Positions 1 through 17,468 of a DNA stretch of 20,000 bases are shown here, piece by piece. The notes below the pieces were generated by a model. That model did no database searches. It was not told the origin of the DNA and saw only the letters and a list, made by a program, of their open reading frames with translations. This DNA comes from an uncultured virus (IMG/VR IMGVR_UViG_3300042989_000017) (Duplodnaviria > Heunggongvirae > Uroviricota > Caudoviricetes): IMG/VR virus record IMGVR_UViG_3300042989_000017; one strand, given 5' to 3'. Numbering within the stretch: the stretch's first letter is position 1; each line of letters opens with the position of its first letter. Position numbers and translations under genes: made by a program.

Positions 1-747
1 ACCCTGACAGGATACCCACGGCTCGACATCACGGTACTTGAAGAAGTTATCATAAAAAATGCACCGCTTGACACCAAAGGCGACCCTGCAAAATTGACGC
101 AATACATCAACAACACCATCACCTCGATCACCAGTACGGTTTCAGGTTTACGCGCCGATCAAGCCTTCGTTCACACTGATAGTATTAAGGCGGATATGGT
201 TAATACCAAGTCAGCAGGCATGACTTTGAATATTGAGCCAATTATCAAAACACTCAATGCACAAAACCAAGCAGCCTTACGGGTCATGGCTACTACTTTA
301 GGTAGAGGGGAGAGCGGAGTTAATACTGCAAGTGTAGAGGCTTTATTGTTTGCGAAGAATGCCGAGGCACTAAATTTACCTATAGCAGAGCTTTGGGAGC
401 AAATTTTCACTTTCATTTTAAGACTAACTGGCTCTACGTCCAGAGTCGTTGTGAAGTTCAGGCCAGTTGAGCTTCGCCCCACTACTGAGCTATGGGCACA
501 AAAGGTGTTGCAACAATCCTTCTTGCAAAAAGAGTTGAGCTTAGGTTCAATAGATGATGACGACTATCATTTAGAGCTATTTGGTCACATACGCCCTGAC
601 TCCGCCCCTATTTTAAGTGGAACTGGTTTTAACGGGGGCGGGAGTGTAGTTAACGCTGGAGGTATTAGCCCTAACACCGACTCCACTGGTAGGTCGGTAT
701 CCTCTGCGGCTGATAAGACCGCGAAAAGTAATGCGGTTAAAAAGTAA
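1..747 (+). CDS. Probable portal protein, C-terminal part (5' truncated by the window)
   Basis: The frame of ORF 94..747 is open from base 1 (TLTGYPRLDITVLEEVIIKNAP...). It lies directly upstream of protease-decoration-capsid. Portal call rests on synteny and a portal-like C-terminus (VVVKFRPVELRP...LGSIDDDDY). Confidence 0.7.
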   Translation, partial: TLTGYPRLDITVLEEVIIKNAPLDTKGDPAKLTQYINNTITSITSTVSGLRADQAFVHTDSIKADMVNTKSAGMTLNIEPIIKTLNAQNQAALRVMATTLGRGESGVNTASVEALLFAKNAEALNLPIAELWEQIFTFILRLTGSTSRVVVKFRPVELRPTTELWAQKVLQQSFLQKELSLGSIDDDDYHLELFGHIRPDSAPILSGTGFNGGGSVVNAGGISPNTDSTGRSVSSAADKTAKSNAVKK

Positions 748-862
748 CTAAGGTAAACTATTAGTAGGTCACGTTCCTTTGCGTTCTGTGCCTTTTGACC
801 AAGGACGAAGTTGTTTTAGTTGATAGTTACTTAACCACCTACGAGCGTAAGTGGTAAACAAG

Positions 863-885
863 AAAAAGCCCTCAAAAGAGGGCTT
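863..885 (-). terminator. Intrinsic terminator-like hairpin, minus strand
   Basis: AAGCCCTC-AAAA-GAGGGCTT perfect stem preceded by AAAAA on + (a U-tract on -). It could end the minus-strand non-coding transcript. Confidence 0.55.
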
Positions 886-988
886 CAGTAATCTTCTGTT
901 CTTCGTGACCGCTCTTTACCTAAGGCATCGAACATCACATTGTTTCTGTTGGTACCAAACAGAGAAGACCGTAACAAGTAACCTACTG

Positions 989-1011
989 AAGCCTCCTTTC
1001 GGAAGCTTTTT
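989..1011 (+). terminator. Terminator-like hairpin, plus strand
   Basis: AAGCCTCC-TTTC-GGAAGCTT running into a T-tract (1007-1011); one mismatch in the stem. Confidence 0.35.
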
Positions 1012-1120
1012 GCTATCAGGTTGTTTATCTCGTAGATTCTACCGCCATAAGGCGATGTCACCAACTATCTGGCCACTACTCAGACTGTACCTGCAAACGT
1101 CTTTTAGTTCTTTACAATTT

Positions 1121-1194
1121 TGGCAGCGAGGGACGGAATCAAACCGCCTTCTTCGGTTTTGGAGACCGAGGTAATATCAATATACGACCAAGCT
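1121..1194 (-). tRNA. tRNA-Trp(CCA)-like gene, degenerate (possible pseudo-tRNA)
   Basis: Minus strand AGCTTGGTCGTATATTGATATTACCTCGGTCTCCAAAACCGAAGAAGGCGGTTTGATTCCGTCCCTCGCTGCCA: anticodon arm TCGGT-CTCCAAA-ACCGA, T arm GGCGG-TTTGATT-CCGTC, encoded 3' GCCA. Acceptor stem has two mismatches, T-loop is TTT rather than TTC, D-loop lacks GG. Confidence 0.75.
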
Positions 1195-1197
1195 AAA

Positions 1198-1387
1198 AAC
1201 TTAAAAATCCTAGGTTAAAACTGCTACTTCCCACCAGGTTTTTATTCGTCAACTACTCGCTCAGGTTTCAATTCTTTCCCGCAAAAGATATGCGATTACC
1301 TTTATGCTTCTAAACCCTCCTGTTCGCATTACTCAAGAGTTCATAGGCCAACCTACTATTCGGAGTTTCAACTTAGGTTTTTAAGTT
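1198..1387. repeat. Imperfect ~24-bp inverted repeat closing a ~140-nt insert
   Basis: AACTTAAAAATCCTAGGTTAAAACT (1198-1222) versus AGTTTCAACTTAGGTTTTTAAGTT (1364-1387): 2 substitutions and 1 indel. Confidence 0.8.
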
Positions 1388-1407
1388 CTCTCATTGTTAA
1401 GCTACAC

Positions 1408-1510
1408 GATAACTGACTAAACTCTGCTCACCAAGCCATCATTGTAGTAGCTGAGAAGTAGCAGGATTTATGGGGAACCCTTCCCAGCTCACAGAGTTTA
1501 GTCAGTTATC
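1408..1510. repeat. Perfect 19-bp inverted repeat closing a 65-nt insert
   Basis: GATAACTGACTAAACTCTG (1408-1426) and CAGAGTTTAGTCAGTTATC (1492-1510) are exact reverse complements. Confidence 0.95.
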
Positions 1511-1518
1511 AAGTAAAG

Positions 1519-1594
1519 TGGACTAGGTAAGGGACTCGAACCCCTATTTCCCACTTTTGAAAGCAAGCGTCTTAACCGTTAGACGACCCGCGCC
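1519..1594 (-). pseudogene. tRNA-Glu(TTC)-like element with broken acceptor and anticodon stems
   Basis: Minus strand GGCGCGGGTCGTCTAACGGTTAAGACGCTTGCTTTCAAAAGTGGGAAATAGGGGTTCGAGTCCCTTACCTAGTCCA: intact D arm (GTCT/AGAC), intact T arm (AGGGG-TTCGAGT-CCCTT), CT-TTC-A loop and 3' CCA. The acceptor strands do not pair and the anticodon stem is irregular. Confidence 0.7.
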
Positions 1595-1753
1595 AGAATA
1601 AACTATCCACTTCTTTTCGGCAACGGTAAGTGGTCAACCATCAATCAGAGATATGATGCACCCCTGCCTTCTTCCTTTTGACTCGAACTACACCCACTGG
1701 AGTAACCGTCTCAATAGCCAAGTATTGTAGGGAGGAAGCCGCCATGAGTTGAA

Positions 1754-1782
1754 AGATTACTTCGACTGACCTTCTTTGTCTG
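1754..1782 (-). promoter_or_regulatory. Candidate sigma70-like promoter for the minus-strand non-coding cassette
   Basis: Minus strand CAGACA-17 bp-TAATCT pointing into the cassette; -35 matches only 4/6. Confidence 0.3.
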
Positions 1783-1810
1783 TATCTTCTTTGTAACTTT
1801 TATAATCTGT

Positions 1811-1839
1811 TTGCAAACCTAGCCTCGTTATAGTAACCT
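1811..1839 (+). promoter_or_regulatory. Candidate sigma70-like promoter for the head genes
   Basis: TTGCAA-17 bp-TAACCT, 35 bp upstream of the protease ATG. Confidence 0.45.
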
Positions 1840-1873
1840 TAATACACCTACAAAATTTATACAAAAGTACGCC

Positions 1874-3037
1874 ATGAAACGTATTGAAATCACAGAACGT
1901 ATCAAAGCTCTCATCAAAGCATCAGTTGGAGATGAGATTGATTACAGCCAAGTTGCTGCTTTCGAGGCAACCGCAGTTACTTCCTTACCGCTCAATAGAC
2001 GCGGCTCTATCTTTGATAAGGGTCGGATCACTGCCGAGACATTTATCGAAGCAGCCACTCTTTTAAATACTGGCGGTTTCGTACCCCTTCACACGTTGCA
2101 CGAGCAAGATTATGAAATCCCAGTAGGTCGTCTGTTCTACGGTGAACATTTAAAGACACCTCAAGGTACTGACGAACTCCGTACTTTATTCTTTGTTGAT
2201 AGTACAAGCCCTAACTTAATTAGCCGCCTTGATACAGGAACCATTGAGGAGGTCAGCGTAGGTATGCAATTTAAGCGTTTACTTTGCTCTACCTGCGGTG
2301 TTGACCTGATGGAAGATACCGAATCTATGTGGTCGCAGACCTGCAAGAACGGTCATGTTATGGGTATGGGTACAAACCACGTTCGCCCTGACGGTGTCGC
2401 CAATTTCCGTGAAATGAGCTTAGTTTCCAAAGGTGCCAGTAATGGCGCGAAGGTTCTAGGCGCACAGAAGCGTTTACTTGCTTCCGCTTACTATAAAGAA
2501 GGCTCTCAATTAGCTGCTTCTTTGAAAGACCCTGAACTTATGCTTTTTGGCTCTCCCACTAAGCTTGCTGAGGAAGACCCTATGTTAATTGCTGAATTAG
2601 AAGCTAAGTTAGCAAAAGCTGAAGGTGATTTAACCTTAACAGCGACCGCTAAGATTGAAGCTGAAGGTAAAGTAGCTATGCTCGAAGCGGCTAAAGTTAC
2701 TCTGGAAGCGGCTAAAACTGAAACCGAAGGTAAAATCGTTGCTCTTGAAGCCAAGTTAGCAGTCGAAGCTGAGAATAATGTCGGCCTTGCTACCAGCGTC
2801 ACAACTTGGGAAGCAGCTTGTACAGCTTCCGAAGCTGCCAAAGTAGAAGCCGAAACTAAGTTAGCTGCGGCTGAAACCGAAGTCGCCGCCCTTAAAGCGA
2901 CCTCAAACATGACGCTGACTCAGCGACCATTTAAGCTCCCTCTTGGTGGCGTTGAAGGCTTGCGAGCCACGACTACCGATAGCGAAAACCCAAACCTTGT
3001 TACGATTGGCTCTACCGCCTTTCGGACACCCAAGTAA
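1874..3037 (+). CDS. Prohead maturation protease fused to a coiled-coil scaffold-like domain
   Basis: 387 aa. Motifs LHTLH...PVGR, EEVSVG and FREMSLV..GA resemble HK97/herpes-fold prohead proteases. C-terminal Ala/Glu/Lys heptad-rich region. Sits between portal and capsid genes. Confidence 0.8.
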   Translation: MKRIEITERIKALIKASVGDEIDYSQVAAFEATAVTSLPLNRRGSIFDKGRITAETFIEAATLLNTGGFVPLHTLHEQDYEIPVGRLFYGEHLKTPQGTDELRTLFFVDSTSPNLISRLDTGTIEEVSVGMQFKRLLCSTCGVDLMEDTESMWSQTCKNGHVMGMGTNHVRPDGVANFREMSLVSKGASNGAKVLGAQKRLLASAYYKEGSQLAASLKDPELMLFGSPTKLAEEDPMLIAELEAKLAKAEGDLTLTATAKIEAEGKVAMLEAAKVTLEAAKTETEGKIVALEAKLAVEAENNVGLATSVTTWEAACTASEAAKVEAETKLAAAETEVAALKATSNMTLTQRPFKLPLGGVEGLRATTTDSENPNLVTIGSTAFRTPK

Positions 3038-3072: not shown

Positions 3073-3462
3073 ATGACAGAAATCGCATCAGGTGGCGTGA
3101 CCCTCGTGGGCATTCCCCAACAAGACTTCCGCTTCACTTGCCGCTTAACCGCAGGTATGGTTGCTGCGGATATTGGCAAACCAGTTGCTTTATCGACTGC
3201 TGCCAACAACACAGTTAAATTAGCAGGCGATGGCGACATCGTGATCGGTCGCTTATTGACTTATCGCAATTTGACAACCGAAGGCATTATCGTTGGTAGT
3301 GTTGAGTTCAAAGGCGGTTTCCGCTTTGACACAACTGATACTGTCGTTATCGGTGACGGTGTTGTCGGTTCTGCAACGGCTGGTAAAGTCAAAGCAGGTA
3401 CAAACCCTCGTTCATTAGTAGTTGCCGTTAACGGTACAACTGCTGATGTAATCTTCATCTAA
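3073..3462 (+). CDS. Head decoration / minor capsid protein
   Basis: 129 aa, Gly/Ala/Val/Thr-rich (DIGKPVAL...TVKLAGDGD.VIGRL), RBS AGGAGA, immediately upstream of the major capsid gene. Confidence 0.7.
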   Translation: MTEIASGGVTLVGIPQQDFRFTCRLTAGMVAADIGKPVALSTAANNTVKLAGDGDIVIGRLLTYRNLTTEGIIVGSVEFKGGFRFDTTDTVVIGDGVVGSATAGKVKAGTNPRSLVVAVNGTTADVIFI

Positions 3463-3473
3463 GGAGTAGGTAT

Positions 3474-4652
3474 ATGCGTCCTTTATCAGATATTAAGAAA
3501 ACTACTCCTGAAGCCGTTGCTGCTTTGTTGATGACGATTAGCAAGTCTGACTCCAAAGAAAACGGCATGGCGTTAGTGAAAGAAGCTGCCTCTTTCGGCT
3601 TGAACCTACGTGATTACCTAACACTTTCTGTTGACACCAAAGGTGGCGAAGACAAGTGGAAAGGTTATAACGGTTATGAGGCGATTAAAGTTGCTTTGAA
3701 CTTGCCTCACGCAAATGACTTTGAAGCTGGTATCACTTTGCAAGCTGCGGCTAACACTTTTAACACATACGCGGGTACTCGCGCTATGTTCCCTGAAGTG
3801 ATTGACGATATGTTGAAGTTTAAAACGCTTCAAGATAACAAAGTTGAAAACATTGCTTCGATTGTTGGCCAGTCTCGTACTGTGTCTCAGCGTGAAATGA
3901 TTTCGACTTACTATGAAGATGACTTGGCTGACGGCAGCGTGGACACATTCACGATTGCTGAGCTCGGTAAAATCCCTGTTCGTAGCGTCCGCACAAGCCA
4001 AAGCTCTGTTAACTTCGGCAAACGCGGTAGTGGTATTGAGTTGTCTTACGAGTTCACTCGTGAAGCGTCTCTCGACATCATTGCTCCGTTTGCTGCTCGT
4101 ATTGCTCGTGCCTTGGAGAAATCCAAAGTGGCTGCTGCAACTTCGATCTTGATTAACGGTGATGGTGTTAACGCGGCTGCTGAAGTTCAAGCCTTCTCTA
4201 GCTTCGGCGCAACTGGCGGTGTTATCAGCGCGGCAAACTACAAAGCCTTAGCGAAGTTCTTAATGAGCAACGCTAACAACGGTTATGTCTTCGACACATT
4301 CGTTGTGAACTTTGATATGTATGTTGAATTGATGTTCATGTCCCAGCCTGTTGTTGGTGCTGGCTTGAGTACAGTTGACTTCATGCAGAACAAAGGCACA
4401 CCTGCAATCAGCACAACCTTACCATTTATGAATGGCATGGTTAACGTGGTTTTATCTTCTAGCGTACCTGCTGGCAAGATTATCGCCATGACTAAGGCTG
4501 AATGTATCGAAGAACTCGTTATGGCTGGTGGTAACATCTCCGAAAGCGAGCGTTCGATCACTAACCAATCTATCACTTATGTGAAAACAGAAGAGACAGG
4601 TTACAAGTTAGCGGTGCCTAAAGCGCGTGTTGTTTTAAACGTAGCAGCTTAA
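3474..4652 (+). CDS. Major capsid protein (HK97 fold expected)
   Basis: 392 aa, RBS AAGGAG, capsid-like segments (IAELGKIP, KRGSGIELSYE, ILINGDG), followed by a strong terminator; canonical position. Confidence 0.85.
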   Translation: MRPLSDIKKTTPEAVAALLMTISKSDSKENGMALVKEAASFGLNLRDYLTLSVDTKGGEDKWKGYNGYEAIKVALNLPHANDFEAGITLQAAANTFNTYAGTRAMFPEVIDDMLKFKTLQDNKVENIASIVGQSRTVSQREMISTYYEDDLADGSVDTFTIAELGKIPVRSVRTSQSSVNFGKRGSGIELSYEFTREASLDIIAPFAARIARALEKSKVAAATSILINGDGVNAAAEVQAFSSFGATGGVISAANYKALAKFLMSNANNGYVFDTFVVNFDMYVELMFMSQPVVGAGLSTVDFMQNKGTPAISTTLPFMNGMVNVVLSSSVPAGKIIAMTKAECIEELVMAGGNISESERSITNQSITYVKTEETGYKLAVPKARVVLNVAA

Positions 4653-4747: not shown

Positions 4748-5071
4748 ATGTTAGTTATTGTAAAGACCACAGGTTCCTTTATGCTCTCCCCTTACGACGG
4801 TGGAGCTACCCCTTTGATTGAAGCGGGACTTCCAACATTATGCAAACTTACCCCCTTCATACAGTATCGGGTCAAGTTAGGTCAGTTAAAGATTTTGGCA
4901 GAGAATGTTCCCGAAACAGCAACTCAGTCAGGGATACTTGCTGGGATACAGGCTGCTGATGGAGATGTTGAGGCGTATATCAAAAGTTTGACTTCCGCTC
5001 TCCAGTTAGCCAAAGAAGTTCCACCAATAAAAAACCCATCTCCAACTGCAAAAACTAAAAAGAGTATTTAA
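4748..5071 (+). CDS. Hypothetical virion/head-associated protein (107 aa)
   Basis: Start moved from 4658 to ATG 4748 (RBS GAGGTG) because the longer ORF runs through the capsid terminator. Confidence 0.7.
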   Translation: MLVIVKTTGSFMLSPYDGGATPLIEAGLPTLCKLTPFIQYRVKLGQLKILAENVPETATQSGILAGIQAADGDVEAYIKSLTSALQLAKEVPPIKNPSPTAKTKKSI

Positions 5072-7204: not shown

Positions 7205-7663
7205 ATGTTAATCGGCAACGGTTTACTTAACATCATCGAGTCTAGTTTACTGGCACGTTCTAAGGCTCTCGCAGAAGCGATTAACGGCACTCTTGGCTAC
7301 AATACAAAGTCTGTGTTGTTTGATGACTACACCCTAGAGGAAAAGCTCCCTCAGCAAGATATTATCGGTTGCTGGCAGTTAGAGTTAGAGGTTGATGAGC
7401 ATATTGTCTCAGGCACATTTCTACTAACCCTTAGCACCTTTAATGACGCAGGTTTGTTCCGCCTAAGAAATGCAGCGAGCTTGGTTTTCGATGAGATGAA
7501 ACCGATGCAGGAGTTTAGTCTCTATCAACCTGACGGTACTCAGGTTGAAGGAACTATTATTGTGATGAATGGTGTGAAGATGCTGCCTGTCGAGAAAGGG
7601 GATGAACGCCCTGCCAAGACGTTCGCTATCCCCTTCAAATGTACTCGGACTATTGGGCTTTAA
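7205..7663 (+). CDS. Putative tail terminator protein
   Basis: 152 aa, acidic, last connector gene before the tail tube gene. Confidence 0.5.
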   Translation: MLIGNGLLNIIESSLLARSKALAEAINGTLGYNTKSVLFDDYTLEEKLPQQDIIGCWQLELEVDEHIVSGTFLLTLSTFNDAGLFRLRNAASLVFDEMKPMQEFSLYQPDGTQVEGTIIVMNGVKMLPVEKGDERPAKTFAIPFKCTRTIGL

Positions 7664-9584: not shown

Positions 9585-9697
9585 ACAGAAAAGCCGTATT
9601 ATCATAAGCTAGGCAGTGGAGGGTTAAGTGTGGAACCCAACTAGCAAGATAAAACGGCTTTTCTGTACACTTAAAATACCCAATGTCTCGCCACTAC
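9585..9697 (-). promoter_or_regulatory. Structured 5' leader of the antirepressor gene (attenuator-like)
   Basis: 13-bp perfect stem 9585-9597/9654-9666 extended by TTATC/GATAA, GCTAG/CTAGC and GGGTT/AACCC; ends in a U-rich run just before the RBS. Confidence 0.7.
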
Positions 9698-9718
9698 GCT
9701 ACCCATCAGATGTTTATA

Positions 9719-16901: not shown

Positions 16902-17468
16902 TTAATCCGTTATCTCAACGGTATAAGCCATTAAAGCCTCGTAGACACGGATGTCTACTCGATCTTTATAAAGCTCGGCCATGCGTTTAATGTGGGCTTC
17001 TTTAGCTGTTTTGTAGACTTGGAAGGCTTCTTTGGGGGTTTTAAAACAACCCAGACGAGAGTTTTTACCTAGAGCGCTTAATCTAGCGAGATACCTGTTC
17101 CCACCCTGATGTAGCACAACACCTAATGGGCAGTCTCCTCGATACCTGAGCCTGTTTAAAAGAAGAGTATTTAAAGTTTTAGGCACAAAAACACAGGTGT
17201 CTTCAAAATAAATTCGGTAACCCTTAATCAGCAGGTTTTTATCTAGTTGATACCCAGCTAGGTTAAAGCCAATCTGTTGCTGAACCCACTTGTAAAAGAA
17301 ACTGTAGTCTTTAAAGTTTTCACTAACAGTACAGCCAACATAGGTTGGCTGTTTAACCTGAGTTTTTACAGAGTAGCATCGTCTCAACATATTTTTCCAA
17401 AGACTGTACTCCATGACTATCTTGCCGTTAACGACGGCAGGGCAACTACCGTCGTTAATACCTTGCAT
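16902..17468 (-). CDS. HNH-like homing endonuclease with C-terminal AP2-like DNA-binding domain
   Basis: 188 aa; YSLWKNMLRRCY...PTYVGCTV...LDKNLL.KG...TCVFVP..LN, then GV...YLARL...LGCFKTPKEAFQVYK. Free-standing, opposite strand. Confidence 0.8.
   Translation of the reverse strand: MQGINDGSCPAVVNGKIVMEYSLWKNMLRRCYSVKTQVKQPTYVGCTVSENFKDYSFFYKWVQQQIGFNLAGYQLDKNLLIKGYRIYFEDTCVFVPKTLNTLLLNRLRYRGDCPLGVVLHQGGNRYLARLSALGKNSRLGCFKTPKEAFQVYKTAKEAHIKRMAELYKDRVDIRVYEALMAYTVEITD

Follow-up and report, generated by a model that had tools for sequence, protein, structure and literature searches.

A putative minus-strand tRNA transcription unit with a conserved leader between portal and head genes of an uncultured freshwater phage lineage

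Why should a tailed phage carry more than a kilobase of DNA without any evident gene in the middle of its head-gene block? The question is raised by a 20,000-nucleotide stretch of an uncultured virus of the Caudoviricetes (IMG/VR record IMGVR_UViG_3300042989_000017; this whole stretch is called the window below), in which 1126 nucleotides (nt), at positions 748-1873 (1.1 kb), separate the end of the portal gene from the start of a plus-strand gene for a protein of 387 amino acids (aa). This length is unusual, because 79 nt separate the portal gene of Achromobacter phage JWF from its ortholog of the 387-aa gene (38% identity, E 2e-62). An initial annotation, made from the sequence alone, had already stated that the junction is usually tight, as JWF confirms, and that about 1 kb of it holds no credible open reading frame (ORF). 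Indeed, the only ORFs of at least 40 aa in 748-1873, one at 851-1174 on the plus strand and one at 885-1064 on the minus strand, have no PHROG match. That annotation saw in the gap a minus-strand array of unrelated small RNAs. The comparison with relatives described here points to another answer, which we hold to be the probable one: the gap is a lineage-specific accessory tRNA transcription unit, read from the minus strand and inserted between genes that stand close together in more distant phages.

Followed along the minus strand, the parts of the gap come in the order promoter-like site, leader, decayed tRNA-Phe copy, long hairpin (IR2), inverted repeat (IR3), tRNA-Trp gene, trailer 1, hairpin B and terminator. 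The annotated outline, a non-coding minus-strand unit bracketed by the promoter and terminator that it had named and with tRNA folds embedded in it, is thus recovered. Relatives were collected by searches with the 387-aa protein, which gave 26 loci, 13 from viral contigs and 13 from metagenomes (73-88% protein identity, and one identical contig), and a search with a leader pattern added three further contigs. Modules were counted in 19 sequences, the window and 18 loci, near-identical contigs being kept separate. Folding energies are expressed as z-scores against 200 dinucleotide shuffles and refer to the minus strand unless stated. No relative was found among genome contigs scanned with an alignment of the 387-aa protein.

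The only part of the gap that aligns in every sequence is window 1591-1760, together with the stretch that continues to about 1790. It comprises the leader (1752-1591, minus strand, about 160 nt), present in 19/19 sequences at 72-81% identity, and, just upstream, a candidate sigma-70-type promoter (1782-1754, minus strand) made of the hexamer CAGACA (1782-1777), a 17-nt spacer and the hexamer TAATCT (1759-1754), with a predicted transcription start around 1748-1746. The 18 distinct sequences have CAGACA in 17 cases and TAGACA in one; downstream, TAATCT is found in 13, TATTCT in three, TAGTCT in one and TATTAT in one. The spacer is 17 nt long in all 18, while its letters vary. Fixed hexamers, a constant distance and free letters in between would be the pattern expected of a promoter, and on this point the promoter placed at 1754-1782 by the initial annotation gains from the comparison.

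Six helices were proposed in the leader from its alignment and counted on 15 distinct rows. The proposed partners pair in 437 of 450 cells (97.1%), against 38-53% in controls with slid partners. Four pairs show a change on both sides, a count matched by 27 of 500 shuffles, and none of 500 shuffles matches the covariation score. No Rfam family matches the leader, either in the window (E up to 5) or in the relatives. A covariance model of the leader finds a single copy in a relative of 68.5 kb and none in JWF; genome contigs gave five matches to a 21-mer pattern of the leader, of which the model aligns only 21-23 nt at 19-22 bits, and these were read as chance. A possible pairing of CUUCCUCC with GGAGGAAG within the leader finds no covariation for or against it in the alignment. 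We read this element as a conserved 5' leader, single-stranded over long invariant stretches and folded locally into a few hairpins, and it probably acts in cis.

The leader does not look like a gene, since no frame is open across all 18 distinct sequences. A mini-ORF of 13 codons (window 1646-1605, minus strand) is kept in 17 of the 18 distinct leaders and fused in L024; about 35 nt upstream of it, beyond a variable hairpin, stands a strong Shine-Dalgarno-like run. It was not counted as a gene because its third codon positions are invariant and because its two main amino-acid replacements stem from the opposite sides of a single RNA pair, which speaks of a constraint on RNA and not on a peptide. 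The invariant loop of the leader has an exact 11-nt complement at 7212-7222 (plus strand), in codons 3-6 of the ORF at 7205-7663. An antisense role of this loop, suggested by the 10-mer TCGGCAACGG recurring at 7212, was rejected, and the match read as chance: L001 and L013 hold no second exact copy, in loci that should by arithmetic reach the homolog of the ORF at 7205, whose presence there is unconfirmed.

The tRNA-Trp(CCA) gene lies at 1121-1194 on the minus strand, with its CCA end encoded. ARAGORN calls it and Rfam scores it at 41.3 bits (RF00005, cut-off 29), in agreement with the tRNA-Trp-like fold seen initially. It belongs to what we call type B, found in two of the 19 sequences, the window and L039. 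The L039 copy is 96% identical (42.8 bits) and retains the two acceptor mismatches of the window copy; two of the differences between the copies amount to a compensatory change from G-C to A-U in the T stem. Thirteen other sequences carry a different tRNA-Trp, type A, which the Rfam tRNA model fails to detect. Nevertheless, its acceptor, anticodon and T stems are paired in 100% of cells and three pairs show two-sided changes (five distinct sequences); it is under selection as a folded tRNA. As one type or the other occurs in 15 of the 19 sequences, tRNA-Trp is the item that the lineage keeps. When window 700-1900 was compared with phage-collection DNA, the sole match was one of 53 nt (1135-1187, 88.9%) within the tRNA-Trp gene, to a gene annotated as tRNA-Gln in an uncultured crAss-like phage, which hints that the window tRNA-Trp was acquired from elsewhere or had its anticodon changed.

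A second tRNA-like fold, at 1524-1589 on the minus strand, had been labelled tRNA-Glu-like. The tRNA likeness stands (26.1 bits with the Rfam tRNA model, below the cut-off of 29, and no ARAGORN call); the Glu label does not. Its counterpart in the alignment is the tRNA-Phe(GAA) of four relatives. The fold has an anticodon loop of 8 nt and shows, by eye, mismatches at three of the seven acceptor positions; because of these features it is read as a decayed copy of tRNA-Phe(GAA). Its T arm is intact. The tRNA family is alone among those of Rfam 15 in matching the gap of the window, at the gathering threshold as well as with E relaxed to 5.

Between leader and portal gene, the content of the gap is mosaic. 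Its length is about 370 nt in two relatives (L020 and L024) and 1162-2144 nt in 11 viral-contig loci. The relatives carry one to three tRNA genes each, all on the minus strand: in addition to tRNA-Trp, tRNA-Pro and tRNA-Phe each occur in four of the 19 sequences, tRNA-Met in L007 only, and tRNA-Ser together with one more tRNA (38.7 bits) in L039 only. The DNA of a minus-strand HNH ORF of about 200 aa is present in 15/19 (two of these being short remnants and one cut by the contig end); the protein matches phrog_953, HNH endonuclease, with E 1.7e-73. L008 has in its place an ORF of homing-endonuclease type (phrog_314, GIY-YIG-type) and a KilA-N protein. In L020 and L024 (positions 3130-3230), a deletion joins the leader to the last 30 or so codons of the HNH gene; every tRNA is lost there, and the leader is kept all the same. 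Between phages, accessory modules reach 91-100% identity, while the leaders of these phages share only 72-81% with that of the window, a contrast that suggests recent exchange, the leader identity being taken against the window and not within the pairs of phages. The window itself carries, at 16902-17468 on the minus strand and just past a tape-measure-sized ORF, a 188-aa HNH gene (phrog_953, E 8.6e-68) that is the copy nearest to the gap and a paralog of the HNH gene of the relatives; the protein is 49-54% identical to the portal-gap endonucleases of the relatives.

The endonuclease genes of the relatives show one further feature. The Rfam int-alpA RNA motif (RF02996) is matched in L009 and L011 at 4810-4875 (minus strand, 38.8 bits, cut-off 35.8), across the start of a second HNH gene, and more weakly in L018 at 109-175 (minus strand, 24.4 bits), in the presumed 5' untranslated region of that gene. 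These endonuclease genes may carry the motif as a 5' element.

Downstream of tRNA-Trp, the unit continues with trailer 1 (1012-1120, minus strand), shared with L018 (80%) and L039 (87%), hence found in 3/19 sequences; 13/19 carry another type, trailer 2 (that of L004), partial in six of them. Both trailers fold only weakly better than shuffles (z -1.4 to -1.8); for trailer 1 the plus-strand z-score is -0.2, the minus-strand one -1.8. A terminator scan finds an intrinsic terminator of the minus-strand unit at 886-865 (nine pairs, five of them G-C, then a T-rich tail), where one had been announced at 863-885, and equivalent hairpins exist in L018, L004 and L039. In L004 the tRNA array is followed, after about 150 nt, by a strong terminator hairpin, then by a separate promoter-like site and the HNH gene. 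Just beyond the window terminator stands an 8-bp hairpin (835-855, minus strand), kept in L039, where a G-U pair has become A-U. The whole 3' module (835-1016) is 93% identical in L039: six of its substitutions fall at sites predicted to pair, where all six preserve a minus-strand pair, and the remaining ones fall at unpaired sites. Thus, compensatory changes are found in tRNA-Trp, in parts of the leader and in the 3' module. The terminator arm is also part of an inverted repeat with arms at 863-890 and 984-1011 (28 nt, 79%), whose other arm, hairpin B (984-1011, plus strand), is terminator-like in look; the terminator scan made no call there. In L008 hairpin B directly follows the portal gene (gap positions 23-55, 91% over 34 nt). 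If hairpin B were a plus-strand terminator, transcripts of the two strands would overlap across 863-1011. The spacer that follows the portal stop codon (748-834) is poorly conserved in L039.

The remaining slot, where relatives carry tRNA-Pro, is filled by IR2 and IR3, separated from their neighbours by spacers of 3-15 nt. IR2 (1403-1515, minus strand) has arms of 24 nt at 92% identity (1403-1426 and 1492-1515) and an inner stem of 10 bp; the perfect 19-bp repeat first noticed at 1408-1510 is its core. IR3 (1198-1387, minus strand) has arms of 22 nt at 77% (1198-1219 and 1366-1387) with 146 nt between them. The 20-kb window has six long inverted repeats, and three of them lie in the 1.1-kb gap. 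RNase III needs about two turns of near-perfect double-stranded RNA, and the predicted stem of IR2, of 3+21 pairs, would be long enough by this rule.

It had been claimed that the gap is tiled almost end to end by self-contained structures. Folding energies separate those that stand from those that do not. IR2 (z -6.4, no shuffle out of 200 folding as well), the hairpin 835-855 (z -4.6, 0/200) and the inverted repeat 863-1011 (z -4.4, 0/200) clearly exceed the shuffles; the repeat 1198-1387, which is IR3 (z about -2.1, 4/200), and the multi-stem junction 1017-1093 inside trailer 1 (z -2.0, 5/200) do so to a lesser extent. By contrast, the closing stem proposed at 742-833 gains no support (z-scores -0.85, with 38/200 shuffles folding as well, and +0.31), as is the T-loop hairpin proposed at 1671-1738 (z +0.40, 123/200 as good), whose T-loop-like 9-mer is specific to the window. 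The leader falls in the same group. The expected conservation, covariation and swapping of modules are likewise found in part: there are compensatory pairs in the leader, pair-keeping substitutions in the 3' module and a mosaic of modules, whereas IR2 and IR3 occur in 1/19 sequences, the window only.

In the scheme that we favour, the host RNA polymerase would transcribe the unit from the conserved hexamers, and RNase P together with 3' processing enzymes would cut out the tRNAs. The main product would be tRNA-Trp, which could supplement or replace the host tRNA, possibly against tRNA-targeting defences. The leader would work in cis on its own transcript, through 5' stability, processing or read-through. 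The mosaic content would result from recombination around endonuclease-made breaks, and the two long hairpins unique to the window would be either RNase III-type processing sites or neutral products of rearrangement.

Several observations weigh against this scheme. The public runs that contain the stretch are freshwater metagenomes; no run recorded as RNA contains it. (One library labelled metatranscriptomic, which has a contig over 899-1091, is flagged as probably DNA and was not counted as evidence of expression.) A sigma-70 promoter scan returns no site: 1782-1754 scores 7/12 against the E. coli consensus, below the threshold of the scan, so that the candidate promoter is weak by that consensus and draws its support from conservation only. 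The helices of the leader were picked from the very alignment on which they were counted, and its 15 rows represent few clades; for these reasons the covariation must be taken as modest. Moreover, the leader does not fold better than chance: in the window its z-score is +2.2, each of the 200 shuffles being as stable or more so, and the leaders of L013 and L039 reach +0.86 and -0.08. The two types of tRNA-Trp both deviate from the standard fold: the window copy has five of the seven acceptor pairs, one mismatch in the D stem and a T loop reading UUUGAUU, outside the standard acceptor and T-loop pattern, and type A is missed by Rfam, so that a working tRNA is only putative. The gap of the window has no endonuclease remnant (748-1523, tblastn with four ORFs of relatives, which matched only the paralog at 16902-17468). 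Lastly, nothing can be said about selection on IR2 and IR3, because they have no homolog.

Some of these points would be accounted for if the gap were mostly debris, with tRNA-Trp as its only functional item, if any, the leader being conserved as DNA, for example as sites controlling the divergent promoter of the 387-aa gene, and the inverted repeats being scars of break repair after the loss of an endonuclease. The leader does lie 110-280 nt upstream of the 387-aa gene and has no thermodynamic structure, and its best-conserved 21-mer is invariant even where an RNA loop could vary. Read on the plus strand, IR2 and IR3 lose little of their folding (z -4.8 and -2.1), which is what one would predict for DNA palindromes. 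The fusion of leader and HNH remnant in L020 and L024 demonstrates that rearrangement occurs at the locus, and rearrangement driven by endonucleases at tRNA loci is reported in passages of PMC13096335. What stands in the way is the strand on which the changes make sense. The compensatory changes and the G-U pattern favour an RNA of the minus strand, the leader helices being paired in 97.1% of cells there and in 79.8% on the plus strand, a comparison that is biased by the choice of helices. Furthermore, the promoter-like hexamers always accompany the leader, even when genes are inserted before the 387-aa gene. Finally, the same genotype, hairpins included, is found essentially unchanged in the runs of three studies, which may mean only that one strain is widespread. 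On balance, we consider it unlikely that the gap is mostly debris, and the accessory tRNA unit is preferred.

A bolder version of the tRNA unit would make the locus a new kind of non-coding operon. Its unclassified leader would be made first and would act either on RNA polymerase or on the transcript that carries it, allowing a series of interchangeable tRNAs and hairpin modules to be expressed; these would be cut apart by tRNA-processing enzymes and RNase III and traded, through endonuclease-driven recombination, to match the defences of the host. We regard this version as quite unlikely.

The proposal with which the study began, that the gap encodes a polycistronic array of unrelated cargo RNAs (leader, IR2, IR3, trailer and 3' module) directed against host defence, with tRNA folds and long stems serving only as cutting marks, is highly doubtful. 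Several features are as it would predict. The modules occupy tRNA-sized slots with 3-15 nt between them, the predicted IR2 stem exceeds 20 bp, which is sufficient for RNase III by the usual length requirement, and the decayed tRNA-Phe has kept its T arm. Non-tRNA modules are exchanged among relatives, as trailers 1 and 2 are, and pairs are kept in the leader and in the 3' module. Small RNAs within a tRNA region also have a precedent in RNAC and RNAD of T4, at least as described in parts of PMC3014915. However, the variable content of the relatives consists mainly of tRNA genes and homing endonucleases, not of unrelated cargoes. The would-be cargoes IR2 and IR3 are confined to one sequence of 19, the leader and the trailers are no more stable than shuffles or only weakly so, no Rfam decoy, CRISPR-repeat or ribozyme family matches, no module is tied to any defence system, and nothing connects the unit with counter-defence apart from what holds for phage tRNAs at large. 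The most persistent variable item after the HNH DNA is tRNA-Trp, in both its types, and its compensatory evolution fits a product and not a punctuation mark. The modules on which the idea of counter-defence by cargo RNAs depends are either confined to this phage or only weakly structured.

A mobile origin of IR2 and IR3, as miniature inverted-repeat elements (MITE-like) that landed in the array, is very improbable: they are short (113 and 190 nt), non-coding, bounded by terminal inverted repeats of 22-24 nt and absent from all relatives compared, as such elements would be, but their flanks have no clear target-site duplication, they have no partner transposase and no second copy in the 20-kb window, the 19-mer of IR2 has no further exact copy in viral contigs, and no contig bridges either element in four runs, as an excision would have produced.

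The surroundings of the gap are those of the structural gene block of a tailed phage, as judged from the ORF listing and PHROG matches. The C-terminus of the portal protein is encoded at 1-747 (phrog_3753, E 1.5e-48), the 387-aa protein at 1874-3037 on the plus strand (phrog_37797, function unknown) and the major head protein at 3474-4652 (phrog_3922); the tape-measure-sized ORF of the window has 2128 aa. Upstream of the 387-aa gene lies a conserved region (1799-1873, plus strand), 74-88% identical in relatives even across inserted genes, which presumably holds the promoter and ribosome-binding site of that gene; the promoter scan called none there. By head protein, the closest cultured phages are Achromobacter phages 2-1 and JWF (51% identity), Xylophilus phage Lumi and Caulobacter phage Seuss. 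The 387-aa gene had been called a protease, a label without family support: no protease family matches it, nor does any Pfam or NCBIfam entry. The C-terminal third of the protein is a repeat rich in Ala, Glu and Lys, more scaffold-like in look. Elsewhere in the window, ARAGORN reports a 93-nt 'tRNA-Stop' with anticodon TTA (9616-9708, minus strand), which has no Rfam match even at E up to 1 and overlaps a 19-nt inverted repeat of 95% identity (9585-9603 and 9648-9666) where two divergent genes are separated; a long hairpin was probably mistaken for a tRNA here.

Among known systems, the tRNA region of phages T4 and T6 is the closest, as far as it is described in the passages of the sources cited here. 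There too, tRNA genes are clustered on one strand, and the region also yields two small RNAs of unknown role, RNAC and RNAD (PMC3014915). Homologs of SegB show a significant co-location with tRNA genes, and an amplification of tRNA-Tyr that is driven by SegB works against the Septu defence, according to parts of PMC13096335. A free-standing homing endonuclease beside the tRNAs is common to the T4/T6 region, in the same partial accounts, and to the relatives, not to the window's own gap; the turnover by recombination described for T4/T6 would have its like in the lineage studied here. Unlike the T4/T6 region, the island studied here is set between the portal gene and the head gene that follows it, on the strand opposite to the structural genes, and belongs to a siphophage lineage akin to JWF and Seuss; it has only one to three tRNAs, mostly HNH (phrog_953) endonucleases and a conserved leader at its head.

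Two further comparisons bear on what the tRNAs might do. In tRNA punctuation, on the mitochondrial model or with mascRNA-like ends, RNase P and RNase Z define the ends of the neighbouring RNAs. The tRNA folds of the island would set such ends in the same manner, processing here being only predicted. As to defence, the tRNA-Lys of T5 reportedly counters PARIS, the tRNA-Tyr of T6 acts against Septu, and other phage tRNAs are said to evade retron effectors. The present lineage keeps a tRNA-Trp(CCA) in two unrelated versions with deviant arms, as might be expected of a replacement tRNA that escapes a nuclease; it differs from the known defence-evading tRNAs in that no defence system against tRNA-Trp was identified here.

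That phage tRNAs rescue translation from tRNA-cutting defences, and that homing endonucleases remodel the loci that carry them, is known from work reported in parts of PMC13096335. The island described here would extend this association of tRNAs and endonucleases to a lineage of uncultured freshwater siphophages, where it occupies an unusual antisense site within the head-gene block. To this it adds an unclassified leader, present in every member even when all the tRNAs are deleted, and a tRNA-Trp that persists in the lineage under two unrelated forms, both of deviant structure. Should the leader prove to be a functional RNA, it would open a way into the control of accessory RNA operons by phages; should it not, the locus remains a clear natural case of module shuffling at a tRNA/endonuclease hotspot.

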